Of a stretch of DNA of 64,000 nucleotides, positions 2,689 to 31,749 are shown piece after piece. The notes below the pieces were generated by a model. It did no database searches. It was given only the letters and a program-made list of their open reading frames with translations, and had not been told where the DNA came from. A program made the position numbers and the translations under genes. Numbering within the stretch: the first letter of the stretch is position 1; every line of letters begins with the position of its first letter. The stretch is from a phage. Location of the stretch: the sequence record OZ346158.1; one strand, given 5' to 3'.

Positions 2689-2973
2689 ATGGTAGTAGAG
2701 CCAACAAAAACATTTACATCCATGACCATTCCTGTTATTATGCAGGTGGAGTGTGTTCAGGTATCTCAAGTGTGGCCTGGCACCAAAATCCCAACAGGGC
2801 CTGATTTCTTTCAGGTTGGGAAAGTGTACAATGTCTGGAAGGCACCAGATTGTTACCCTTTCATTAAAGATGACCGTGGGATGCTGTGGTATCTTGGAAA
2901 TGACTTGACACTGCACCTTGGGAATGCTATTATTGCAGTATTCAGACTTAACAAGAAGGAGACCGATCAATGA
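2689..2973 (+). CDS. hypothetical protein
   Basis: ORF with SD aagaggag upstream of ATG; start codon choice uncertain. Confidence 0.5.
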   Translation: MVVEPTKTFTSMTIPVIMQVECVQVSQVWPGTKIPTGPDFFQVGKVYNVWKAPDCYPFIKDDRGMLWYLGNDLTLHLGNAIIAVFRLNKKETDQ

Positions 2974-3197
2974 CGACTTTGGTTAAAGCTACCTTTGTAG
3001 AAGAAAAGATGACAGACCTGTCATTCTTTAAAGAAGGAAAGACCTACGAGGTTTATTACGATAAAGCTCGTGCAAACAAAATGATTAAAGACGAGGAAGG
3101 GGTTGCCTGGTATATCTCTCACCTGGCAAACGGTGAGTATCATATCTACGGAACCACTTTGCTTGCCAAGTTTGTAGTTGTTGAAGAGGACCTATGA
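2970..3197 (+). CDS. hypothetical protein
   Basis: ORF, ATGA stop-start overlap with upstream gene. Confidence 0.55.
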   Translation: MTTLVKATFVEEKMTDLSFFKEGKTYEVYYDKARANKMIKDEEGVAWYISHLANGEYHIYGTTLLAKFVVVEEDL

Positions 3198-11720: not shown

Positions 11721-11839
11721 TTTTAAAATTTCTATATGGGAATATTTTAGTGGATACTATTTTATAGGAAATTGTTACGGAGGGTAATTAGCGTGCTAAT
11801 TAAATTTATTAAATGCGAGGAGTTCTCATTTAGAATTTT

Positions 11840-12050
11840 GAATGATAATCATTCTCGTTTGCAGAATAACGGGCAGGCCCGGTGATTGTCTCCCGGCCCC
11901 TACTGCCCCGGCTTGTTATTATAGTAACACACAGGACAAAGAAAGCAAGAAGTTTTTGCATAAATTTTTAGACGATAATGATAATCGTTCTCATTTCATG
12001 CAGCGCCCATCCCCGGTGGTTGTCTCCCCCGTCACCGGTGCCTGCCGTCC
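11840..12050. repeat. Two direct copies of a ~60-bp unit (gataatc..ttctc..gcag ... ccggtgRttgtctccc)
   Basis: Units at about 11840-11901 and 11972-12048; the 16-mer ccggtgattgtctccc recurs inverted at 21016-21031. Confidence 0.75.
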
Positions 12051-12238
12051 TTTCAATAGGTATATTTTGCCACCTGGCGGGGCCGCTGTCAACACTTTTC
12101 AAAAAAAAAATTCTAACCTGATGCGCTGACCGCTGCAACCTGGCAGGGCCTAACTGACCAGGTAGGAGAGAATGAAGGCTTGCAAACCTGGTGGGCCTAT
12201 GCTATAGGATAGGTAACAATTGAAGAGGAGGTACAAAA

Positions 12239-12415
12239 ATGGAAGGTAATATGATCCCCCTGGAAAATGTAGCTATTAATGACGCTGAGGCTATCGCCCT
12301 GGTTGAAAAGGCTATGGCGGGAGCGTTGGAACATAAAGAAGAGTACGAAAAAATGGTGGTTAACCTGGCAGGGGCGGCGGCTGGAGAATTCTACCCAAAA
12401 AATAATTTTAACTAA
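12239..12415 (+). CDS. hypothetical small protein (58 aa)
   Basis: Strong SD gaagaggagg 8 nt before ATG. Confidence 0.5.
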   Translation: MEGNMIPLENVAINDAEAIALVEKAMAGALEHKEEYEKMVVNLAGAAAGEFYPKNNFN

Positions 12416-12418
12416 TGG

Positions 12419-12447
12419 TTGACAGCTCGGACAGTTCTTGTTATTCT
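12419..12447 (+). promoter_or_regulatory. sigma70-like promoter TTGACA-N17-TATTCT
   Basis: Read directly. Confidence 0.5.
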
Positions 12448-13243: not shown

Positions 13244-13639
13244 ATGAATAAGAACGTACGCCGCATCATGAACGAACTGGCAAACGATGAAAAAATTATT
13301 GACATGCATTTAGTCAACATTTGCCGCCGTTGTGTAACATATAACAACCGCGCCGCAAAAGCGCGTGAGATGAACGCAAAAGGCACCTTAAAGCCCTTTC
13401 AGGTGGTTGTAAAATCTATAACCAGTGCAGCAGGCCAGGCGCATGACCACAACAACGGGAGCACTAATATTGATCCGTCTTACGTAATGAAACGGATCCG
13501 GACTTGCAAGAATAAAGAGCAGGTGTATAATGTCATAGACTGGTTGGATTCTATGGGCGATGTGGTTTACAATAGGTTTTCTGCAGCTATCGAGATCCAG
13601 CTTGACAGGTTGGACGGTAAAGTACTGAAAACTTACTAA
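13244..13639 (+). CDS. hypothetical protein
   Basis: SD aaaggaaaaaag; preceded by promoter and 5' hairpin ggcgggaatgtttcccgcc. Confidence 0.55.
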   Translation: MNKNVRRIMNELANDEKIIDMHLVNICRRCVTYNNRAAKAREMNAKGTLKPFQVVVKSITSAAGQAHDHNNGSTNIDPSYVMKRIRTCKNKEQVYNVIDWLDSMGDVVYNRFSAAIEIQLDRLDGKVLKTY

Positions 13640-13686
13640 GATTATTTTTAGATGGCCTTGACTTCAGGGCCATCAATAAAGTAAAC
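13640..13686 (+). repeat. 47-bp conserved intergenic element, copy 1 (hairpin gatggcc/ggccatc)
   Basis: Identical to 14271-14317; near-identical to 18010-18058. Confidence 0.85.
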
Positions 13687-13719
13687 TAATCCCAGTTAAG
13701 CGAAAAAGGAGGCTTGAAG

Positions 13720-13839
13720 ATGAGCACTACACGCCAACACACAAAGGTAACGATTATCGTTTGCATCATTGGTTACATCCTGGCGCAAATGTTGATGGGT
13801 AGCGCCAATGATTTCGCAAAATTTTTCTTAGACTTTTAA
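13720..13839 (+). CDS. small hydrophobic protein (39 aa)
   Basis: SD aaaaggagg; TM-like IIVCIIGYILAQMLM. Confidence 0.4.
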   Translation: MSTTRQHTKVTIIVCIIGYILAQMLMGSANDFAKFFLDF

Positions 13840-13867
13840 TTGACAAGCTAACTTAAATCAGTATAAT
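13840..13867 (+). promoter_or_regulatory. sigma70-like promoter TTGACA-N16-TATAAT
   Basis: Perfect hexamers. Confidence 0.6.
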
Positions 13868-13919
13868 ACTAAGCACATAAACGGGAAAACTTCCCAGAAC
13901 ACCAAAAGGAGAAAACATT

Positions 13920-14270
13920 ATGAATACTTCCATCACTATGACCGCCGAAGAAAAAGCCCTGCAGATCGCCGCTCTGAAAAAACAGATTGCAGAACTTGAA
14001 GACAAGATCGACAATTTTGAAATCGACGAAGACAAGTACGACGATAAATATGATGAATGGTTAGACGAGATCTACGGCGAAATTATGATCGGAAACATTT
14101 CTTTTCTTCCGTCGCGTATCCTCAAGGAGCTAGATCCTATCGCTTACCGCTGCGGATTTAGCGACTACATCGACAGCCTGGATATTGAGGACGATGAAGA
14201 ATACCAGGAATTACAGACAGAGTTAGAAGAAGCAAAAGAAGAGCTTGCAGAACTGGAAGAAAACGAGTAA
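13920..14270 (+). CDS. highly acidic coiled-coil protein (candidate DNA mimic)
   Basis: D/E-rich throughout (EDKIDNFEIDEDKYDDKYDEW...DIEDDEEYQELQTELEEAKEELAELEENE). Confidence 0.55.
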   Translation: MNTSITMTAEEKALQIAALKKQIAELEDKIDNFEIDEDKYDDKYDEWLDEIYGEIMIGNISFLPSRILKELDPIAYRCGFSDYIDSLDIEDDEEYQELQTELEEAKEELAELEENE

Positions 14271-14317
14271 GATTATTTTTAGATGGCCTTGACTTCAGGG
14301 CCATCAATAAAGTAAAC
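14271..14317 (+). repeat. 47-bp conserved intergenic element, copy 2
   Basis: Exact repeat of 13640-13686. Confidence 0.85.
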
Positions 14318-14359
14318 TTTATACTGTTAACACTGAACTAATGCATAGGAGTTAAAACC

Positions 14360-14605
14360 ATGGCAGCACTAATCACCAAATATTATGCCCCTACCAACAC
14401 CAAAAGCGCCCGTATCATGGTAAAAGGCTTCGGACGTAAAAAGGTGTACACCTGGGATTATGCCTTAGACACGGAAGACAACTACACCAACGCGATGACC
14501 GATTTTATTAATGATCTGAACACGCGGATCTTGACAAATTATAAAATTACCGATATTGCCTATATAGGGGAAGGCGGGATCTGTTTTGTCGGTATCGTCA
14601 AATAA
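14360..14605 (+). CDS. hypothetical protein
   Basis: SD ataggagtt. Confidence 0.55.
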   Translation: MAALITKYYAPTNTKSARIMVKGFGRKKVYTWDYALDTEDNYTNAMTDFINDLNTRILTNYKITDIAYIGEGGICFVGIVK

Positions 14606-14680
14606 GCTGTTTTTTCGGTGGTCCTGGTAGCAGGGCCATCTATAAAGATAGTTTATCAATACAATGAAAGGAGAAAGTAC

Positions 14681-15034
14681 ATGATCAGCGGGGCAAGTTT
14701 TATTATTGGCGCTATTGCTACGGCTTTAATTGTAAACAAGATCCAATCTAAAAACGAAAAAGATAGCAACGCCCTTACAGAATACCCGTTTTGGGTATTC
14801 AACGACAATGAAGACTATATTATCAAGTACAAGAATGAGAAGGGCGACCAGGTAACACCTCGACCGATCCCGGCTTACAAGATGCAAGAAACACTATACC
14901 GCCTAAAGGCTGGAGGCGCAAAAATCGTAGACTTTTGGGGATACGATCACACAGATCAGGAAGTTATAAAGCGCCGTATCCGGGCTATTCAGGCCAATAT
15001 TGAAGTTAGCAAGGGGGGAATATATGAAGATTAA
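14681..15034 (+). CDS. hypothetical membrane-anchored protein
   Basis: SD gaaaggagaaag; N-terminal TM FIIGAIATALIV. Confidence 0.5.
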   Translation: MISGASFIIGAIATALIVNKIQSKNEKDSNALTEYPFWVFNDNEDYIIKYKNEKGDQVTPRPIPAYKMQETLYRLKAGGAKIVDFWGYDHTDQEVIKRRIRAIQANIEVSKGGIYED

Positions 15035-18417: not shown

Positions 18418-18768
18418 ATGAAAGTAAAACTATATTACCTTAATGAGCTTAACCCCCTTGCCCAGGTCCGCGCCATGGCTAATACCTTGATTTGTGAGAA
18501 ATCTGTATATTGTGTTGAGCTTAACTCCATGCGTGAACGTCTCAAAGGTGGTTACTTTGACATCCATGCTGCAATCAACGGCCTGAATATGGAATTTATC
18601 CGCTTACGTAACAGCCGCCAGAATCTGGGAAGAATGGAACAAGATCCGGCCCACCTTCGTAAGCTGGTTATTGAAAATCATCTAATGTTTAATGCCGATG
18701 GTGATTATTACCATTTTCACCGTAAACGCTGGTACCGTAGCGGCAATATAGGAAAGAATGCAAAATAA
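18418..18768 (+). CDS. hypothetical protein
   Basis: ORF. Confidence 0.5.
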   Translation: MKVKLYYLNELNPLAQVRAMANTLICEKSVYCVELNSMRERLKGGYFDIHAAINGLNMEFIRLRNSRQNLGRMEQDPAHLRKLVIENHLMFNADGDYYHFHRKRWYRSGNIGKNAK

Positions 18769-22356: not shown

Positions 22357-23123
22357 TCTGCTCTTCTCCTACCATAAACGGCCCTACCTGGCAAGTGGAA
22401 TAATTGACTAGCCATCAATCCCACATACTGTACAAATATACATGGAAAATAACTATTGCATAATTTTTCATTGTGTGGTAGCAAGTCCATTTTTACCCGT
22501 TTTCTCTCCCAAAAGTGCACGTAATGCCGCTATTGCACAAATTTTAACCTGATGCACATCTCCAATATCTTGTCAACAACTAAAAATCTTTATAAGTCAT
22601 ACACTTACACAGCATCGAAAGCGTGTTCTACGCGAAAAATCGAGTATAACTATAGCCGCCAGATCTCAGAATTCACGTACGCACGCCATTCTATAGCCTG
22701 CAAAGTATTTATTCCAACCACAGAATAACGGAATAGTCAATACCTGCATAAAATAATTATTCGTGTAAACTGCATAACATAAATCAGCTCAGGTGTCAAC
22801 ATTTTTCGTAAACAGTCCGAAATTATCACGATGAGTTATCATAAACAGAGAAATCTTTAGTCGTCTAATGTTTACTGTACATTACTATACTGACTGGAAT
22901 CATTAGATGACTAATACAATAGAACAAATTAATAATGTAATTATTTTACCTGTAACAATAAGGCAACTATGCAAACGAATGGCATGGCGCGACGGAGTCG
23001 CGACATAATATAAAAGCAGTAACCATCACCCCCGTGATAGTTTGTCTGCAAACTATTAATCAGATCATAGTTGCCTTGTATTTAGTTAATCATGACATAA
23101 CAAGCAAGGCAACTATAGATATA

Positions 23124-23381
23124 CTAAACCATAGCTTCAAAAGGAGTCATGAACGAATAAACGGCATCATCATCTGCTTCAGGGAATGCTCCCAAAGACT
23201 TCATATCTGAACCCTTGACAAATACAAGGTTTTGATCAAAGGCTTCTTGGGGGTCAATCCGATACATATTTCGTAGAATATCGCTTACCTCCTCATCAAG
23301 AGGTGAGTATGCTGTGCACGTTTTTCCGATCAAGCTTTGAGAATCAGGGTATCCACCTGAAGTTTTAAAATAAACAATCAT
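23124..23381 (-). CDS. hypothetical protein
   Basis: ORF at end of - strand block. Confidence 0.5.
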   Translation of the reverse strand: MIVYFKTSGGYPDSQSLIGKTCTAYSPLDEEVSDILRNMYRIDPQEAFDQNLVFVKGSDMKSLGAFPEADDDAVYSFMTPFEAMV

Positions 23382-23472
23382 ATAGTATCACCTCTGGTAA
23401 GAGATTGGGATTCCTTTCCCACAAATAATTACAAATCTTCCTTATCGAGGAAGTATGCTAATCCAAGCAGGA

Positions 23473-23742
23473 TTATTCCTCTACAATCTCATACACATCA
23501 GGAGTTACAATCAATTCTTCTCCGTTACCCGGTGCAACAAACACCACCAAACCTTCAGGTGTGTGCTTTTTAGCCATCTCGATAACATCTTCTCGCAGAG
23601 CTGGCTCCATCAGATCAAAACCTTCACCCAGGGCATCACGAACCACCTTCATATAGTCCACTGGTTGTGCTTCAACAATCATGCCTTCAACCAGTCCACA
23701 GTTTTTGTCTGCCAGCTCAGTTTTGAATAATTTAATTTTCAT
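23473..23742 (-). CDS. small protein, distant member of MKVK..EIVEE paralog family
   Basis: MKIKL N-terminus and EIVEE C-terminus shared with 25243/28892 genes. Confidence 0.5.
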   Translation of the reverse strand: MKIKLFKTELADKNCGLVEGMIVEAQPVDYMKVVRDALGEGFDLMEPALREDVIEMAKKHTPEGLVVFVAPGNGEELIVTPDVYEIVEE

Positions 23743-23879
23743 TTAGAGGTCTCCTCAATTATTTGATATTAATAGCCGTAACCTAACACATTAACTACAA
23801 CTGCGATTGCAAACATAATTTCAAAGCATGCAATCTCTACATTTGGGACTAATTTCTTAATCACACCCATTGTAGCACC

Positions 23880-24197
23880 TCATTTTCCAAAGTCAATCTT
23901 TACTTTGCCTTTCCCCTTACCTTTCTTTCCACCGCATTTAGCCAGCTGACGTGCTGCAACATCTACCATACGGTCAGTTGCCTCGTAAGCATCACTACCT
24001 TTAGCCTTGGCAATAACTTCTTTTCCAGAATTGTCAAAAATGAACGCCATAACTTCCTGGTGATCATTTTCAACTTTTACACTCACACGTGCATAGTTGG
24101 CAGAGGGGTGCAAACGCTCCAGTTTAGACATTTTGTTGGAAATGAAAGACACCATACCTTCAGTGATTTCTACGTTGCCAGTGATTTCAATTTGCAT
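23880..24197 (-). CDS. ribosome hibernation promoting factor / RaiA (S30AE family) homolog
   Basis: MQIEITGNVEITEGM...KLERL...VSVKVE and ...GSDAYEATDRMVDVAARQLAK closely parallel bacterial HPF (MQLNITGNNVEITEAL...KLARQL). Confidence 0.8.
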   Translation of the reverse strand: MQIEITGNVEITEGMVSFISNKMSKLERLHPSANYARVSVKVENDHQEVMAFIFDNSGKEVIAKAKGSDAYEATDRMVDVAARQLAKCGGKKGKGKGKVKIDFGK

Positions 24198-24279
24198 AAC
24201 GTGTTCCTTTTAAAGAAGAGGGAACCAAACCCTCTTTGAAAACAATGATACTAAATCTGAAGCGTTGTGTCAACAGTTT

Positions 24280-24570
24280 TTACAGATTGTTGTCGATAGT
24301 TTTTAAAATATCCACAGCAAGATCTGCCATTTTTCGAACATACTCTGCAAACTCAACAGGATCCTTGATCAAAGAATTCACAGGGTCGTACCCTAGAGCG
24401 TTCAAAATGGCTGCAGCATCTACAACCTTCTCATCATTTGCGAAGATCTCTCCATCAAACTTGTAGGTCCATTTTGAGTCAATCTTGGCAGGGAAGGATT
24501 GGTCAACGCTTGTTACACCATCCTTTTTAAACGCTCCGGTGTTATCAGTGTCCAGAACTAAATCCATCAT
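24280..24570 (-). CDS. hypothetical protein
   Basis: ORF. Confidence 0.5.
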   Translation of the reverse strand: MMDLVLDTDNTGAFKKDGVTSVDQSFPAKIDSKWTYKFDGEIFANDEKVVDAAAILNALGYDPVNSLIKDPVEFAEYVRKMADLAVDILKTIDNNL

Positions 24571-24587
24571 GTTAGTACCCCACTGTT

Positions 24588-24986
24588 TCAGTTTAGCTTT
24601 TCTTCAACAACCCCATAGCTCGGGACAGAGTCAAGAGCTTTCTGGTTTAAAAGTGGTGTAGCAGAATCTGCAAACGGTGTCCAAGTTTTTGTTCTGGCAT
24701 TCCAGTAATGCTTCACTCTGGAATCTGGATGCACTATAACAAAAACTTTTTCACTTGTCAACACATTAATTTCTTCTACACCCTTGCTGATAATTTCTCC
24801 GTCATAGCCCCCAGTCTGGTATCCTTCGTACCAGGTTCTTGCATAGGCATAGCCAGCTTGCCAGCATGCAGCCTCCTCCGAGGTGGAGACTACGTAGAAG
24901 TCTTTCTCAAATTCTGGAATACGCCCTTGCTTTATGCTCCAAGCTCCGCGAATTTTCATTGTAACTTTGAACAGTTTATTTTTCAC
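24588..24986 (-). CDS. hypothetical protein
   Basis: ORF. Confidence 0.5.
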   Translation of the reverse strand: MKNKLFKVTMKIRGAWSIKQGRIPEFEKDFYVVSTSEEAACWQAGYAYARTWYEGYQTGGYDGEIISKGVEEINVLTSEKVFVIVHPDSRVKHYWNARTKTWTPFADSATPLLNQKALDSVPSYGVVEEKLN

Positions 24987-24998
24987 AACGGTTACCCA

Positions 24999-25253
24999 TC
25001 ACAGCTCTACAATATTTGCATCTGACCCTACCCCAAAGGCATAATAGGACTCTTCCCCGAAATAATATTCAGGTGCACCAGCGGTGATCAGGTCTGCTCC
25101 TAAGATAAACACTACGTTGTGGCCTACATAACTGTGATGTTGCCGAACAGGATCATCCCACGGCAACCCTTCAAAGTATACCGCAGGAACGACCTTTCCC
25201 TTCAGGAAGGATTGTCCCAAGTAGACGTTAGAATCAAGAATTTTAACCTTCAT
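24999..25253 (-). CDS. small protein, MKVK-LD/LIAAGA paralog family
   Basis: MKVKILDSNVYLGQ...GADLITAGA. Confidence 0.55.
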   Translation of the reverse strand: MKVKILDSNVYLGQSFLKGKVVPAVYFEGLPWDDPVRQHHSYVGHNVVFILGADLITAGAPEYYFGEESYYAFGVGSDANIVEL

Positions 25254-25470
25254 GATTGTCCTCCACTATCTCTACATCCTCACCTAGGGCAAAGTTGTAG
25301 GTCCACTGACTGTCAAAGCATTCCTGAGATGCACCAGCGGCAATAAGATCTGCCCCTTTTATTTTTAAAAGGTCGGGGTAATCTTCGTTAGGGACAGCAG
25401 TAAACACTTTCCCCACTAAGGGCTCCTGACCAATATAGAAGCTCGAATCTAAAACTTTAACTTTCATCAA
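25243..25470 (-). CDS. small protein, MKVK-LD/LIAAGA paralog family
   Basis: MKVKVLDSSFYIGQ...GADLIAAGA...EIVED. Confidence 0.55.
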   Translation of the reverse strand: MMKVKVLDSSFYIGQEPLVGKVFTAVPNEDYPDLLKIKGADLIAAGASQECFDSQWTYNFALGEDVEIVEDNHEG

Positions 25471-25754
25471 CGGTCTCCATCAGGTGGTTGTGGGACGTAA
25501 ACACTGTTACGAATATCGTCCGCAGTATAGTAATAAGTGTCTCCAACCCTATCTCTGGCTGCAATGTACTCTGCTATACCAATAAGTGCCATTGATTTGG
25601 TGGCGTATCTTCCCCACTCGTTAGCTCCCCAGTAGAATTTAGACCAGTAAGGAATAAGACCGAACAAATATACCTTTTGACGAACTTCCCAGTAAGTGCC
25701 TTTTCCGACAAGTTTAAACTCGACTTCACTACTGTTAATCTTTTTCATTATCAA
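25467..25754 (-). CDS. hypothetical protein
   Basis: ORF, translationally coupled. Confidence 0.5.
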   Translation of the reverse strand: MIMKKINSSEVEFKLVGKGTYWEVRQKVYLFGLIPYWSKFYWGANEWGRYATKSMALIGIAEYIAARDRVGDTYYYTADDIRNSVYVPQPPDGDR

Positions 25755-26047
25755 TCTCCCTCTACCGTGGTAGGATTGTCAGTAAGAAATTGAGCATTGG
25801 CTGGAGGCACGCCTGACATTTTCCACACAACCATAAGTTTGTAACCAGGCACTCTATTAAGTGCAGATCGAGTAGAGTTTGTGCACGTATACTTTCGCTT
25901 TCCAAACCCGTTCTCCATCATAATCCAGTACCCAGTATCTTTGTCACCAGGTATCGGTAGACCACCTTCATCAACCCACTGAATGGACCACGGCACGATG
26001 GCTACAGCTTTATATTTAAACTTTTTAAACCACTCAAAAAGTTTCAT
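25751..26047 (-). CDS. hypothetical protein
   Basis: ORF. Confidence 0.5.
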   Translation of the reverse strand: MKLFEWFKKFKYKAVAIVPWSIQWVDEGGLPIPGDKDTGYWIMMENGFGKRKYTCTNSTRSALNRVPGYKLMVVWKMSGVPPANAQFLTDNPTTVEGD

Positions 26048-26142
26048 AATTCAGCCTCGCATAGACATAATCACTATAAACAGGCAAACAATGAATCCGA
26101 ATGCCACGCCACCCATAAACGTTAATATTGATGCAATCATAG

Positions 26143-26328
26143 TCAATCAGCCTCGCTTGGCAACTCTTCTACCTTAACATGCCGAAAAGTGTTACCGTAA
26201 TGGTTGATCCATGACATCAGCTCGCTTTCTTGCTCTTCCTCTGGGATGAACTCTCGAATGCTGACAAGTTTTAAGAAAACCCAATCACAATCTGCACCCA
26301 TTCTACCAGACAGGCAATAGTGCTTCAT
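26143..26328 (-). CDS. hypothetical protein
   Basis: ORF. Confidence 0.4.
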   Translation of the reverse strand: MKHYCLSGRMGADCDWVFLKLVSIREFIPEEEQESELMSWINHYGNTFRHVKVEELPSEAD

Positions 26329-26346
26329 AAAACCCTCCCGCCTGGT

Positions 26347-26541
26347 TTAGAATATTGCTTCTTCCATTGCGCCTGAGAGCAACAAAGAGGTGATCTGGCT
26401 AACATTCATCTCAGACTCTACTTCCTCCCCTTTGAAAGGTTCGCGGCAGAATAGGACTGTTTCAGGACTTTTACTTCGAACAATATAATACAAATCATTC
26501 AATGTGTTGTAGTAATAAGTGTTAAAACGTAAGTTTTTCAT
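26347..26541 (-). CDS. hypothetical protein
   Basis: ORF. Confidence 0.45.
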   Translation of the reverse strand: MKNLRFNTYYYNTLNDLYYIVRSKSPETVLFCREPFKGEEVESEMNVSQITSLLLSGAMEEAIF

Positions 26542-26825
26542 TTTCTAGTCCTCTTCTTAGATTTTTGGGGAGAAACGCTTTCTGCAATACGAGACAGACG
26601 TTCTTCTGAAGCCTTACCTACTCCAGGTTTTTTGAGTGGATTATCTTTATGACCACAATCCAACTGGATATTGGATACCTCTCCAACTTTGTAAGTCAAT
26701 TCTAGCAAAAGGTTGTCGTCCTTGTCAAATGTTTTTACGATAAATTTTTTATCGTTCTCCTGAACTTCATATCTGGTACCTGCAGTATACAGCATGGTGC
26801 CATCAGCATAGGATATCCAAATCAT
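26538..26825 (-). CDS. hypothetical protein
   Basis: ORF. Confidence 0.5.
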   Translation of the reverse strand: MIWISYADGTMLYTAGTRYEVQENDKKFIVKTFDKDDNLLLELTYKVGEVSNIQLDCGHKDNPLKKPGVGKASEERLSRIAESVSPQKSKKRTRK

Positions 26826-27169
26826 TGAGCCTCCTTTTGCTGCAACAGCATTAACTCTTTGTTAGAAATCTTTACTGCTGTTTTTATTGTTCCATCTTCA
26901 CGAAACCACGACCAGAACTCTACAGTGTCACCACTATCAAGTAAAGCATGCCCATGGTAAAAATCTTTGTCCTTAGACAGTTTCTCATCTATATCTGCAT
27001 CAACACATTCGTGATCCATAGCATTTTGCCTGAACGCATCGGTTATGCCAATGCACGCCTTGCTCTCAAGACTGGTATATCCGATATCTTTTAATTCAGT
27101 TTCCCAAGTCCAGTACCCTATAAAAGCTAAAACAGCTACCCACAGTAATAACGTTTTAATCTTTGGCAT
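26822..27169 (-). CDS. secreted or membrane-anchored protein
   Basis: N-terminal hydrophobic LLLWVAVLAFIGYWTW. Confidence 0.5.
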   Translation of the reverse strand: MPKIKTLLLWVAVLAFIGYWTWETELKDIGYTSLESKACIGITDAFRQNAMDHECVDADIDEKLSKDKDFYHGHALLDSGDTVEFWSWFREDGTIKTAVKISNKELMLLQQKEAQ

Positions 27170-27231
27170 TCTCTCTACCTCTTTCTTAGTTTATTTCACT
27201 ATGGCACATCCTTTGTGCCATATCTCAACTA

Positions 27232-27702
27232 CTACTTAAATAGTAGTTCAAAATAGTGCAAAATTAACAGAAGTTGAACTACACCTAGTGCAACGGCGAG
27301 TATGTTAATCTTAGAATCGAAAAACTTCTTAACTTTTACTCTAAAAGGTTCCTTAATGTCCTTTACGATCCTATCTATAGATGACCTCATATCTCTGATT
27401 ACCATCCTGAACATTAAAGACGGATGCTCCCCCATCTCTGTAACGGAATCGAAAACATACTCTCTTCGGTCATAAGGGCCGCCAGCTCTGCGTATTAACC
27501 TCTCCACAGAGACCTCGAACGTCACACCTGTAACGTAATCATCTATAACAAGTCGTGACGGGTCTTTACCTTTACTGTCAAGAGGTATCAAAGTTATCTT
27601 TCCAGATTTTGTTAAAATTTCCCCTTTTTCAAGCAAGGTGTACCAATGCTCTCTGCCAAGACTGTTGAGGCACGTTTTTACATATTTAACAAACATCGTC
27701 AC
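27232..27702 (-). CDS. C-terminally membrane-anchored protein
   Basis: C-terminal ILAVALGVVQLLLILHYF. Confidence 0.5.
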   Translation of the reverse strand: MTMFVKYVKTCLNSLGREHWYTLLEKGEILTKSGKITLIPLDSKGKDPSRLVIDDYVTGVTFEVSVERLIRRAGGPYDRREYVFDSVTEMGEHPSLMFRMVIRDMRSSIDRIVKDIKEPFRVKVKKFFDSKINILAVALGVVQLLLILHYFELLFK

Positions 27703-27902
27703 CCCTCATCACACGTCTGATATAACCACTCTATGAAATCTTGATACCATTCGCCCTCTGAGCGCTCCGTAGGCCAATAATCTTCACCCTCTCGTGCATT
27801 AAAATCTGAGTATTCAACTTTCCACTCCTTTACCAGCTCGTGGAGAAGGTTTTCAGCCTGTTCTAAAGATTTATTTTTTACCATTGCTGTCTCCTTTTTC
27901 AA
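27699..27902 (-). CDS. hypothetical protein
   Basis: ORF. Confidence 0.45.
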   Translation of the reverse strand: MKKETAMVKNKSLEQAENLLHELVKEWKVEYSDFNAREGEDYWPTERSEGEWYQDFIEWLYQTCDEG

Positions 27903-27967
27903 GATAGTTATACATCAGAACTGCACCACCTAAGATGGCTACCAGTAACAATATCCCAGATAGCATC

Positions 27968-28120
27968 TCAATAAACATGGCTTGAAACACTGGAAGGTCT
28001 CCCTAAATTAACGCACCATTTTAAATACATGCTCTTTTCCCATAAAGGTGCCTGGCTAAGATCTGCGTAGAACGCAATCTCTTTAAGAACAGTATAGATA
28101 GTTTTAGGTGCGGTCTCCAT
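27968..28120 (-). CDS. hypothetical small protein
   Basis: ORF; start uncertain. Confidence 0.3.
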   Translation of the reverse strand: METAPKTIYTVLKEIAFYADLSQAPLWEKSMYLKWCVNLGRPSSVSSHVY

Positions 28121-28331
28121 CCCTACTCTCCTTCCTGATATTCTTGTAGTAATCAACTAGGCACATTATTACGATGAAGATAACAACAGGCCAAAAAGGT
28201 GCAGCAGTGATGATGGTGATAAAATCATCAAACTTCACCCTTCGTCTGGACACGATGCATACACCTGTCAAGAATACCGCTGTTATAACGGACATTACCA
28301 GGTAACCTATTAGCACAACATTTATACTCAT
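28104..28331 (-). CDS. small membrane protein (2 TM)
   Basis: VVLIGYLVMSVITAVFLTGVCIV and AAPFWPVVIFIVIMCLV. Confidence 0.5.
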   Translation of the reverse strand: MSINVVLIGYLVMSVITAVFLTGVCIVSRRRVKFDDFITIITAAPFWPVVIFIVIMCLVDYYKNIRKESRDGDRT

Positions 28332-28361
28332 TGGTCCTCCCTTTGTAGGTTAAATTGTATA

Positions 28362-28895
28362 CTACAAATGGTCGCTGAGGGTGTCAAGAAAATTATCCCG
28401 TTCTTTCTCAGAGTTTTCATGTGTGTAGCTGAAAAACATATCGAGAATAACCTTATTGATATATTCCAGCTCCTCTGTGTTCAGATGCTTAGCAGGATCT
28501 ACAATGACATCCCAAATATCATACAGACCACACTCATGATACCCATAACGCCACTCAATTGTCAAGCTGAGCGGCAAATCTTTACCTTCACAAACAACCT
28601 TCCATCTACATATGTTGGTATCTGGTCGTACCTGTGCACGGTACACCTGCACAAAATCCAATTTGAATTTGAGGTACTCGTCATACAATTTAAGCACAAA
28701 GCTCTCGATTTGTGGAGACACTTTTGCAGCAAACTGTGCGTATTTGTACTTGCACTGGATGATCTTTCTGCGTTTTGCAGTTAAATTTTTTGCCGCCAGT
28801 TGTTCTTCAGTGTATCTCCACCTACGATCAACAAACGCAACAGGGTCTTTGTCCCCATAGAGGTCTTCCCAGTTAATCAGAAGCATACCTGTCAC
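28362..28895 (-). CDS. hypothetical protein
   Basis: ORF. Confidence 0.5.
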   Translation of the reverse strand: MTGMLLINWEDLYGDKDPVAFVDRRWRYTEEQLAAKNLTAKRRKIIQCKYKYAQFAAKVSPQIESFVLKLYDEYLKFKLDFVQVYRAQVRPDTNICRWKVVCEGKDLPLSLTIEWRYGYHECGLYDIWDVIVDPAKHLNTEELEYINKVILDMFFSYTHENSEKERDNFLDTLSDHL

Positions 28896-29125
28896 TCCTC
28901 CACAACTTCAAGGCCTTTACCGCCTCGCTCTGGCAGATTACTTAAAGATAGGTAATACATATAATCAGGAGAGATCCTGCCAGACTCTGCACCTGCAGCT
29001 AGTAAATCCTTCCCTTTAACCAGGACAACATTCTCGTTTGCAGATAGCCGTTTTGCTTCCACAATTTTACCAACACAGTCAACCAAGGAAGGGTACCCTA
29101 AATCTGTAAGAAATTTAACTTTCAT
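28892..29125 (-). CDS. small protein, MKVK-LD/LIAAGA paralog family
   Basis: MKVKFLTDLGY...GKDLLAAGA...EVVEE. Confidence 0.55.
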   Translation of the reverse strand: MKVKFLTDLGYPSLVDCVGKIVEAKRLSANENVVLVKGKDLLAAGAESGRISPDYMYYLSLSNLPERGGKGLEVVEE

Positions 29126-29162
29126 GCTACCTCCTACCTACCGTCCCTGGTAAGATAAATTA

Positions 29163-29561
29163 TTACTGAACAGAGCGCGGTGCTGGGAAGGATAACTCTT
29201 CTAAAGAGAAGATTTCATTTCCTACCACCCAAGTTGCTGGGTCATCTGGATCAACAGGTTGGATAATCATTACCTCATCCGCCTCGCACACACGTTTCCC
29301 ACCCATAGTAGCGTCAGCCACTAACATACGCGGCTCTTCAGAAATGCACAGGTAGCCACCTCGGCCCACTGTTCCTTCCACGGGATCCTGCCCTTTGACC
29401 ACAATGAATACCTTCTCTCCTGTGGAGATATTACTTTTCACACTAACAGTTTGACCAACTTTAGATGTACCGATCTTGGTGGCTTCAAACATTAAATCCC
29501 GAATTACTGTTGCATAGTTGCCGGACACTTTCTTACCTTCTTTAGTAATCTCAATCTTCAT
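29163..29561 (-). CDS. hypothetical protein
   Basis: ORF. Confidence 0.5.
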   Translation of the reverse strand: MKIEITKEGKKVSGNYATVIRDLMFEATKIGTSKVGQTVSVKSNISTGEKVFIVVKGQDPVEGTVGRGGYLCISEEPRMLVADATMGGKRVCEADEVMIIQPVDPDDPATWVVGNEIFSLEELSFPAPRSVQ

Positions 29562-29833
29562 AATCTAGGCTCCTTAAATGAATCTATGTAATCAATTAAA
29601 TCCCAAGCATCGCGATGGGCTGTCAGAGGGTATACTTCTCCGAGAGGGATCATAGCAATAAGTCTATCAAAAACCCAGTCTGGACGCAACATTTTATGGT
29701 GATATTCCCACTCACCTTCCACAGATTTTTTCTGAGTGATCAGGATCTCTGTGTAGTGTTTCGCCTGTCTTGAGTAGATTGAAAATGACTTGTACATAAA
29801 TGACCCCCTCTTGTTGAAAACAACAATACACAA
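29558..29833 (-). CDS. hypothetical protein
   Basis: ORF. Confidence 0.5.
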   Translation of the reverse strand: MCIVVFNKRGSFMYKSFSIYSRQAKHYTEILITQKKSVEGEWEYHHKMLRPDWVFDRLIAMIPLGEVYPLTAHRDAWDLIDYIDSFKEPRL

Positions 29834-30148
29834 CTACCAGGTTACTGTCAAGTAGGCAACCGTATTATTTTTCTCTGGGGAGATGCCAACAACATCTACC
29901 TGCAGACCTCCTGCCCTTAAATCTCCAACAATGTGCGGGAAGTAATCTGAGAGATGCGAGGGTAGATTTATCGAAAATCCGCACCCCAGAAAGCCTGCTA
30001 ACGCTTTATTTTGTATCTCCCCTACAATCGCATCATAAATGGAGTTAAGCTCGTCAGGGAGCGTTACAGGGCGTTTTAGCGCTAGCTGGTGTAATTTGTC
30101 CTTAGCACTCATTTTCATTTCAGGTCTACCTCTGGGGGTGCCAACCAC
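29834..30148 (-). CDS. hypothetical protein
   Basis: ORF. Confidence 0.5.
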   Translation of the reverse strand: MVGTPRGRPEMKMSAKDKLHQLALKRPVTLPDELNSIYDAIVGEIQNKALAGFLGCGFSINLPSHLSDYFPHIVGDLRAGGLQVDVVGISPEKNNTVAYLTVTW

Positions 30149-30648
30149 ATAAACGGCGGCAAGTCTAAACGGTTTTTCTTATCCCACACAAAATATGCAT
30201 ATGCTTGCCCGTCAGTTCTGCCGTTTGATTGAAATGATGGACGCTTAGATATTGTGATCACAGTAGTAGGTGCATTATCAAGCCACCATTCAAATCTGGC
30301 TTTGCTTTCCAGAAAATTAAGACGCAAAAGCATAATAACTACGTCAGCATCTTTCAACGCCTTGTCTACAAACTCACGAGCCAGGCTGTATGGTGGGTTG
30401 GTGATAATACAGTCAACATGGTTGTATTCTGTATTCAGATAGTCAACACCTTCTTGTATTTCTCCCCATGCAGATCCTAACGGCATACGGGAGTAGAACA
30501 CACCTGAGGCACTATTCCTGCAAGGCTCTAAGTAGGTCCAGTCTTCTGGGAACGGAATAAGGTCATACAGCCCTTCTGCACACCACTCCGGTGTCACATA
30601 CTCATCGTAGGCGTTACGTTGTTCATCAGGTTTTCTAGCACAAGTCAT
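30115..30648 (-). CDS. DNA methyltransferase (N6-adenine/N4-cytosine class, NPPY motif), orphan
   Basis: DCIITNPPYS catalytic motif; no adjacent restriction enzyme. Confidence 0.6.
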   Translation of the reverse strand: MTCARKPDEQRNAYDEYVTPEWCAEGLYDLIPFPEDWTYLEPCRNSASGVFYSRMPLGSAWGEIQEGVDYLNTEYNHVDCIITNPPYSLAREFVDKALKDADVVIMLLRLNFLESKARFEWWLDNAPTTVITISKRPSFQSNGRTDGQAYAYFVWDKKNRLDLPPFMWLAPPEVDLK

Positions 30649-30699: not shown

Positions 30700-31749
30700 T
30701 TAAGCTTCTTCGACAATTCCTGCACCCAGGATTTTTTCATTGAGCTCTTTTGCTGTTTTAATAATATTGTCCACCAGACGCTTGCGAGTCTTATCTTTCA
30801 CCTTAACCTCTTCACCGCCGTTCAGAGTAGTCTTCAATTGAGACAGAATATCCTGAAGTTCAACGACAGAGAATCTCTGCAGATCTTCTGAAGTAATCTC
30901 ACTCAGGGCAATTCTGACGGTCTCGCCACTTTCCATCTGCAGATTCAGGAACACAGTGTGAACATCACCTTTCGAACCACCCGCTTTTGCAGATTCAACA
31001 GCATGAACTAACTCATCTAAAGATGTGCACTGGTGAATCTCCGGAAGACCTGCTTCACCTAACACGCCTTCTTCATCACCTTTTGCCAGAAGCTTTTTCG
31101 GTTTTTGTCCGTTCTGGATGCGTTGTATGTTGCCTTCATCCAGAATAATAGCTCCAGTGCGTGCTGCCAGCTCTTCTCCGTCCAACCACACTTCGCCACC
31201 AGCTGTGATGGATGCGATCTCATCTTCTGTCAGCACCCCACCGTAGTATTTTTCGATCAGGCGTTCAAAACGTTTTTTCCAGTAGCTGACCTGAGTATTC
31301 ATGTTCACACCGTTACCATAAGTGCCACCTTGATAGTAGTGGAACATAAACTCTGTGTCCGGAGCCACAGTACGTTCTTTACAACCAAGCCATAAGATTG
31401 TTCCAGCAGAGCAGCACATCCCTTCAGCATGTGCAACAACGCTTGCCTGAGACTCTCGGAATGCCTGCAGATAAGCCATTGCAATGTGCACGCAACCCCC
31501 AGGACTATTGATGATCACCCGAATGCTTTCTTCCGGCTGAGCCATACGGATCGTCTGCAGACGAGACATATGATCTTGTAAGTCTTCCAAATCGTCGATA
31601 TAAAGAACGTGGTCAACAACAGGTGTTGGGTAGCTGTATGTTTCCATGATACCGCCCGGCATACCGAACATTTTATTACTCATAGGTTCGAAACCGTTCT
31701 GTTTTTCTTTCATGCCGTGTACCATGGTTCTGCGAGGTGTTAAATTCAT
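30700..31749 (-). CDS. ClpP-like serine protease (S14 family) with C-terminal extension
   Basis: INSPGG...GMCCSAGTILWLG active-site serine context; about 130 aa extra C-terminal region; terminator hairpin 30661-30700. Confidence 0.65.
   Translation of the reverse strand: MNLTPRRTMVHGMKEKQNGFEPMSNKMFGMPGGIMETYSYPTPVVDHVLYIDDLEDLQDHMSRLQTIRMAQPEESIRVIINSPGGCVHIAMAYLQAFRESQASVVAHAEGMCCSAGTILWLGCKERTVAPDTEFMFHYYQGGTYGNGVNMNTQVSYWKKRFERLIEKYYGGVLTEDEIASITAGGEVWLDGEELAARTGAIILDEGNIQRIQNGQKPKKLLAKGDEEGVLGEAGLPEIHQCTSLDELVHAVESAKAGGSKGDVHTVFLNLQMESGETVRIALSEITSEDLQRFSVVELQDILSQLKTTLNGGEEVKVKDKTRKRLVDNIIKTAKELNEKILGAGIVEEA

Follow-up and report, generated by a model that had tools for sequence, protein, structure and literature searches.

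The 64,000-nt stretch of sequence record OZ346158.1 analysed here (the window) comes from an rV5-like Escherichia coli myovirus of the genus Vequintavirus, in which a cluster of small minus-strand genes holds a paralog family that we call family 1. The genes are labelled A (23473-23742), B (24999-25253), C (25243-25467), D (28892-29125) and E (23124-23381), with F found only in relatives. We are confident of the descriptive part of our account, i.e. that B, C, D and E are the four members left here of an ancient five-gene family (D, C, B, E, F), that its products are predicted to fold as a small beta-barrel, that its genes are under purifying selection, and that A sits in a second family. On function we are only tentative: each paralog might be a stand-alone binding module with its own fixed partner in the infected cell. 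Taking description and mechanism together, we put the probability of this best explanation at roughly one half.

Membership of family 1 and the place of gene A

The minus strand has open reading frames (ORFs) for A, B, C and D at these positions, all four preceded by a Shine-Dalgarno-like sequence. Three of them match phrog_5009 (PHROGs v4, unknown function, with satellites phrog_13367, 13920 and 13661) at full length, each over about positions 1-74 of the 74 in the profile: B (84 aa, isoelectric point (pI) 4.8) at E 9.5e-32, C (74 aa from its ATG, with an alternative TTG start at 25470; pI 4.1) at E 3.1e-38, and D (77 aa, pI 5.4) at E 8.3e-36. The C stop and the B start overlap by 11 nt. BLASTP against the 564 ORFs of the window linked B to C at E 5e-14 (42% identity) and C to D at E 1e-5. 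A profile built from B, C and D picked out one extra member in the window at E 5e-6, the minus-strand gene E (85 aa, 87 aa in relatives; pI 4.1; phrog_13920), which matches phrog_5009 weakly (E 1.2e-4), and jackhmmer runs started from B, C or D ended with these four genes and no others. Against a profile of 44 diverse homologs, the four scored E 1.7e-29 (C), 9e-24 (D), 2e-22 (B) and 1.4e-16 (E), and nothing else in the window fell below 0.1. Three ORFs with similar start or end motifs (24588-24986, 2970-3197 and 18418-18768) were considered as further members and rejected, having no profile signal.

A profile scan of the whole genome of phage CarlMeissner found exactly five family-1 genes, D, C, B, E and F, at 98.7-105.0 kb. 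E and F have PHROGs of their own, and the profiles tie both to family 1. The proteins are 74-87 aa long, except for F with 110 aa; paralogs share 29-50% identity.

The shortness of these ORFs is the only thing that speaks for a low-complexity coincidence, or for ORFs that are not genes. Against such a view stand E-values of 1e-14 to 1e-38, the 54 representative sequences (most of them stand-alone proteins of 63-90 aa that follow the consensus MKVKLL..GGY.G....GK.V.A...[variable]...I.G.DLI.AGA...F....Y.F..G.E.EIVEE) found at E ≤1e-3 among 1.84 billion representative proteins in an exhaustive HMMER search, a confident fold prediction, purifying selection and ribosome-binding sites. We give it practically no chance, and regard it as refuted for B, C, D and E. 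The original prediction had proposed a multi-copy family of four small proteins, A, B, C and D, subject to a check that the shared residues were not of low complexity. The BLASTP, phrog_5009 and profile matches bear out such a family for B, C and D and bring in E, which had been overlooked; for these four, the E-values exclude coincidence. A, described there as a more distant relative, is not picked up: it scores E 3.4 and 6.1 with the family-1 profiles (not significant), has no match to phrog_5009 at E ≤0.1, belongs to another PHROG, and lacks the G(A/K)DL(I/L)(A/T)AGA core (the helix GxDLIxAGA).

Gene A (minus strand, 89 aa, pI 4.4) is assigned to phrog_11868 and scores E 4e-26 with a profile of what we call the A-type. 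Its close homologs occur in rV5-like contigs only, and a profile of its orthologs gave weak matches to further small genes in ordinary Vequintaviruses. A-type sequences align as a coherent family (alignments A6 and A7) of 76 sequence clusters, and where a member comes from a long contig, that contig measures up to ~145 kb. The CarlMeissner scan gave four or five A-type genes at 96.98-99.64 kb, namely A and genes of 86, 116, 109 (weak) and 95 aa, interleaved with the family-1 genes in one ~8 kb stretch. Four A-type genes stand in tandem at 13398-14690 of a divergent rV5-like contig (L054, IMGVR_UViG_3300045988_157310, 121 kb). By these profile matches, A is a member of a second, interleaved paralog family (A-type, phrog_11868) and is not demonstrably part of family 1. 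Its ratio of nonsynonymous to synonymous substitution rates (dN/dS), taken against the relative L008, is 0.045.

In many GenBank records (e.g. MN850593, MK883718 and NC_041869) A carries the label 'sigma 54 modulation factor'. Membership in the ribosome hibernation and sigma-54 modulation factors is not borne out for A, which has no match at E ≤1 to Pfam, including Ribosomal_S30AE (PF02482). S30AE is instead encoded next to it, at 23880-24197, and it is apparently from there that the label was carried over to A.

Predicted fold and the relation between the two families

An AlphaFold2 (AF2) model of C, computed from a 10-sequence alignment, has a mean predicted local distance difference test score (pLDDT) of 92.3 and a predicted template modelling score (pTM) of 0.79. 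Strands span residues 2-5, 21-23, 33-37, 56-61 and 65-69, with a helix at 38-43 that coincides with the conserved D-L-I-x-A-G stretch. Each family-1 protein is predicted to form a five-stranded SH3-like beta-barrel. Strand 3 leads into a short conserved helix (G-x-D-L-I-x-A-G-A), and the loop that joins strands 2 and 3 is variable and accepts insertions, such as the 14 residues added there in B. Known SH3-like small barrels (KOW domains of Spt5/NusG, PsaE, eukaryotic SH3 and the C-terminal domain of retroviral integrase) match at Z <5 and 4-26% identity; SH3 has a tight hairpin where family 1 has its conserved helix and a long strand 3-4 loop. A profile search of PDB sequences gave no sequence-level link, the top match being a designed repeat protein (E 0.003). 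In BFVD, the top matches to the C model are uncharacterised small proteins of other enterobacterial phages (among them CS01, Merlin, pSf-1, Sf20 and RB49), the second-best being the E ortholog of Shigella phage CM1 (TM 0.78). The proteins are acidic (pI 4.1-5.4 in the window, median 4.45 over 40 homologs) and have no hydrophobic or transmembrane segment (maximum 19-residue Kyte-Doolittle mean ≤1.26); they are soluble.

The AF2 model of A (pLDDT 90.7) has five strands and a three-helix insert. Its best fold match is a 95-aa ECP32 protein, for which the identity P0028 was ruled out; going by its length and profile, it would most probably be ECP32DNA_00145, an A-type paralog of 95 aa.

These models bear on whether A is a highly diverged member of family 1, which would unite family 1 and the A-type in one superfamily with about ten genes in each genome. 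We think this quite possible, if short of an even chance. A and family 1 have in common the start MK[IV]K[LI], a second strand G-x-[IV]-V-E-A and the end E[IV]VEE; the models of A and C are both five-stranded, and the three helices of A sit between strands 2 and 3, where B and E have their insertions. The two models have BFVD matches in common, at weak E-values (A0A514CYF5, A0A516M2G1, A0A0K2FHW6, A0A2Z4QD94 and others), the genes of both families are interleaved within a single stretch, and an hhalign comparison scored 25.1 against 8.7 ± 1.8 for a column-shuffle null, a score reached by none of the 200 shuffles. However, the hhalign probability is 6-41%, over ~30 N-terminal columns only, and with the first five residues trimmed the score falls to 13.2 against a null of 8.4 ± 1.9, what remains being the C-terminal E-I-V-E-E. 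The helix GxDLIxAGA is conserved in family 1 and not in A, the family-1 profile scores A at E 3-6, and any small barrel could have such termini, in its first and last strands.

The superfamily can be taken a step further, to ~10 small beta-barrel binders in each rV5-like genome, each fixed on a different host target (e.g. a defence protein, or the translation apparatus alongside the phage hibernation factor), with the strand 2-3 loop as the specificity element and copies arising and collapsing by recombination at the conserved core. We rate this extended picture as rather improbable.

A ClpP-like protease gene just upstream of the cluster in the same block (30700-31749, minus strand, 349 aa) has a product that ends in ...GAGIVEEA. 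We considered whether the C-terminal E[IV]VEE might be a functional tag, given the ...GIVEEA end of this ClpP-like neighbour, and found the idea unsupported, because in the models E[IV]VEE is the last strand of the barrel.

Selection, copy number and distribution

Measured gene-wide against L008, a relative of 88% identity, dN/dS was 0.081 for E, 0.124 for B, 0.046 for C and 0.059 for D, averages that could hide a few selected sites; the values are no higher than those of neighbouring genes (0.02-0.19). C retains 92-100% identity in ~118 Vequintavirus records, and D at least 93% in all but one of ~119. By these measures, the family-1 copies are old, diverged from one another long ago, and are now each under purifying selection. 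They had been predicted to be diversifying small proteins, which neither the dN/dS values nor the identities among orthologs support.

Copy number is likewise steady: a C query finds two matching places per record in nearly all of the ~118 Vequintavirus records. The exceptions are few, and one of them is the window itself. Matches to related phages break exactly at 23127/23128, the junction of a ~6.5 kb deletion spanned by none of 123 related GenBank records. The missing segment, which reaches from codon 86 of E to one arm of a hairpin between convergent transcription units, holds F, four A-type paralogs and other small genes in the relatives. E has lost its last two codons, and the seven bases TAGTATA at the join give it its new stop codon. 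Phage V18 (L062, NC_041937.1, 4992-5590) keeps 59 aa of E and a 46-aa remnant of F, and most of the gene downstream of D is gone as well; behind the V18 truncations lie either sequencing errors or a genuine decay of accessory genes. In two metagenome contigs from independent samples (L063 and L064, 3001-3213 in both) a 70-aa C/B chimera stands in place of the tandem C and B, with its crossover in an 11-nt stretch, CCGCTGGTGCA, that is identical in both genes and lies inside the conserved core. Finally, a D ortholog (66% identity) is the sole family-1 match of the divergent contig L054 in the stretch fetched (±8 kb, including the syntenic B/C and E/F positions); unrelated ORFs (11766-12437) occupy the syntenic B/C position. 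Copy number thus changes rarely, by occasional deletion or by recombination between neighbouring copies. The copy-number variation among related phages that the original prediction had wanted checked does exist, and amounts to rare deletions and one C/B fusion.

Each of the 32 diverse homologs tested also matches phrog_5009. Some carry more than one domain: two and three family-1 domains occur within one polypeptide (P0038, P0042), and on a 1.2 kb contig the domain is fused to DUF3310 (P0074), the only fusion found in a Pfam scan of the longer homologs apart from junk matches on a low-complexity protein. Unrelated phages can have two copies, as on a 42.5 kb contig (L058) and, in tandem, on one of 69.5 kb (L060). 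The contigs with P0042 and P0043 are too short for their contexts to inform.

Temperate mEp021-type coliphages and prophages have one copy, located between the Q antiterminator and holin genes, where the neighbours are unannotated small genes. A search for related loci with a narrower alignment gave mostly mEp021-type prophages, and ~45 prophage-like loci (L009-L055) hold a D-type copy, as does mEp021 itself (mEp021_40, L002 5001-5228). This gene was left uncharacterised in the description of its group (PMC11893012). mEp021_40 and its orthologs in mEpimmI-group phages and prophages align with D at full length with 41-49% identity and share its extra loop (GDKGRGLEVVEG against PERGGKGLEVVEE); the gene differs from the rV5-like family in being single-copy and in residing in a temperate phage of ~54 kb. 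D resembles the mEp021 copy (46% identity, E 2e-19) more closely than it does its own paralogs (C, 31%). This pattern suggests exchange of accessory genes between virulent rV5-like and temperate mEpimmI-group coliphages.

Genome setting and possible function

Over 23128-30000 the window has 99.5% identity to rV5_ev168, and dozens of further isolates match it there at 97% identity or more. Among the records that match here at 95-100% identity to E. coli rV5-like phages are 18 or 19 named 'Campylobacter phage' (MG0656xx, host Campylobacter jejuni), a naming that looks like mislabelling or contamination. The sign of the GC skew flips near 22 kb, and from ~23.1 to ~56 kb the genes lie on the minus strand, the family cluster forming the distal end of that block. 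Genes in the block are short and tightly packed, with frequent start/stop overlaps, and a promoter scan of the coding strand found 32 sigma-70-like sites, against 20.4 ± 5.2 in shuffled sequences, several of them with a perfect TTGACA -35 box. Promoter scan and gene organisation together suggest that the block is transcribed early by the host RNA polymerase; to that extent the predicted early location fits. Terminator-like hairpins on the minus strand lie between A and E (23437-23453) and just downstream of E (23021-23042), and given these, E may be the last gene of its transcription unit in the deleted genome.

Midway through the cluster, a minus-strand gene located between A and B encodes a ribosome hibernation promoting factor (HPF) of the S30AE/RaiA type (23880-24197); it is kept in relatives with a dN/dS of 0.046. 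A DNA adenine methyltransferase gene (30115-30648, minus strand) lies just upstream of the cluster in the same block, as does the ClpP-like protease gene described above.

Pfam and NCBIfam scans of all members gave no match, and a PADLOC scan of A-F gave none at E ≤1, PADLOC being a set of defence models and not of anti-defence models. In the literature on mEp021, Vequintavirus early genes, phrog_5009 and rV5 paralogs we found no statement on these genes. We favour binding modules because of the small size and acidity of the proteins, a fold commonly used for binding, the tandem and fusion forms, and the dispensability of individual copies. Signs of modularity are the tandem domains, the DUF3310 fusion and the two copies in each of two unrelated phages; signs of dispensability are the absence of F and clipping of E in the window, the V18 truncations, the C/B fusion, and the presence of D only in the fetched stretch of L054. 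The partner of each module would be a host protein or another early phage protein, which the module would modulate during takeover. The modules would be accessory rather than essential, because genomes that lack copies or carry truncated ones exist.

Several points weigh against this proposal. No expression data were found for the block, whose early timing is read from the promoter consensus and the gene organisation. The position between Q and holin in mEp021-type phages is late-transcribed, and the family is therefore not restricted to early genes. The contexts of the dispersed members offer no conserved neighbour that would hint at a partner, and some of the truncations, e.g. those of V18, could be sequencing errors.

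The original prediction instead saw the copies as effectors in an arms race: they would diversify to keep up with a variable host factor, and serve either to inhibit different anti-phage defence systems or for exclusion. The genes do have the look of such effectors, being multi-copy, small and acidic, in a block of accessory genes with early-type promoters, and many known anti-defence proteins share these traits; moreover, the multi-copy state recurs in unrelated phages, and the genes are dispensable in some genomes. However, the orthologs are not diversifying (dN/dS 0.05-0.12, and C at 92-100% identity in ~118 genomes), copy number is constant in nearly all Vequintavirus records, and the PADLOC, Pfam and NCBIfam models give no match. 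Exclusion at the surface or receptor is unlikely because these acidic proteins have no membrane segment. We consider the arms-race view unlikely overall; an anti-defence role is conceivable, but shows no sign of an arms race. Another idea is that family-1 proteins are KOW- or Sm-like nucleic-acid-binding or ribosome-associated factors that work with the phage HPF to reprogram translation. The acidity of the proteins argues against a role of this kind at RNA or the ribosome, and we think it quite improbable.

Paralog expansions of small accessory genes are commonplace in large virulent phages, and those of the T4, T5 and SPO1 type have expanded families of small ORFs in their early regions, with host-takeover or accessory roles. 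Family 1 is like these in having short, acidic, tightly packed and individually dispensable genes with host-type promoters. To our knowledge no member of family 1 has a reported target or phenotype, and none is homologous to a characterised takeover protein.

The sequence family was already catalogued as phrog_5009, an entry that carries no annotation and gives neither the fold, nor the multi-copy habit, nor the link to E and F. New here are the tie of E and F to the family, the recognition of a second, interleaved family, a predicted fold, and the finding that selection is purifying rather than diversifying; the GenBank-propagated annotation of A as 'sigma 54 modulation factor' is also corrected. 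In family 1, phage accessory genes have undergone a paralog expansion that is old and stable, which is not a new kind of biology. It is present in every Vequintavirus examined, a genus in use for therapy and biocontrol against E. coli O157, and also in common temperate gut coliphages. If a partner were found, a family so far lacking a function would acquire one.

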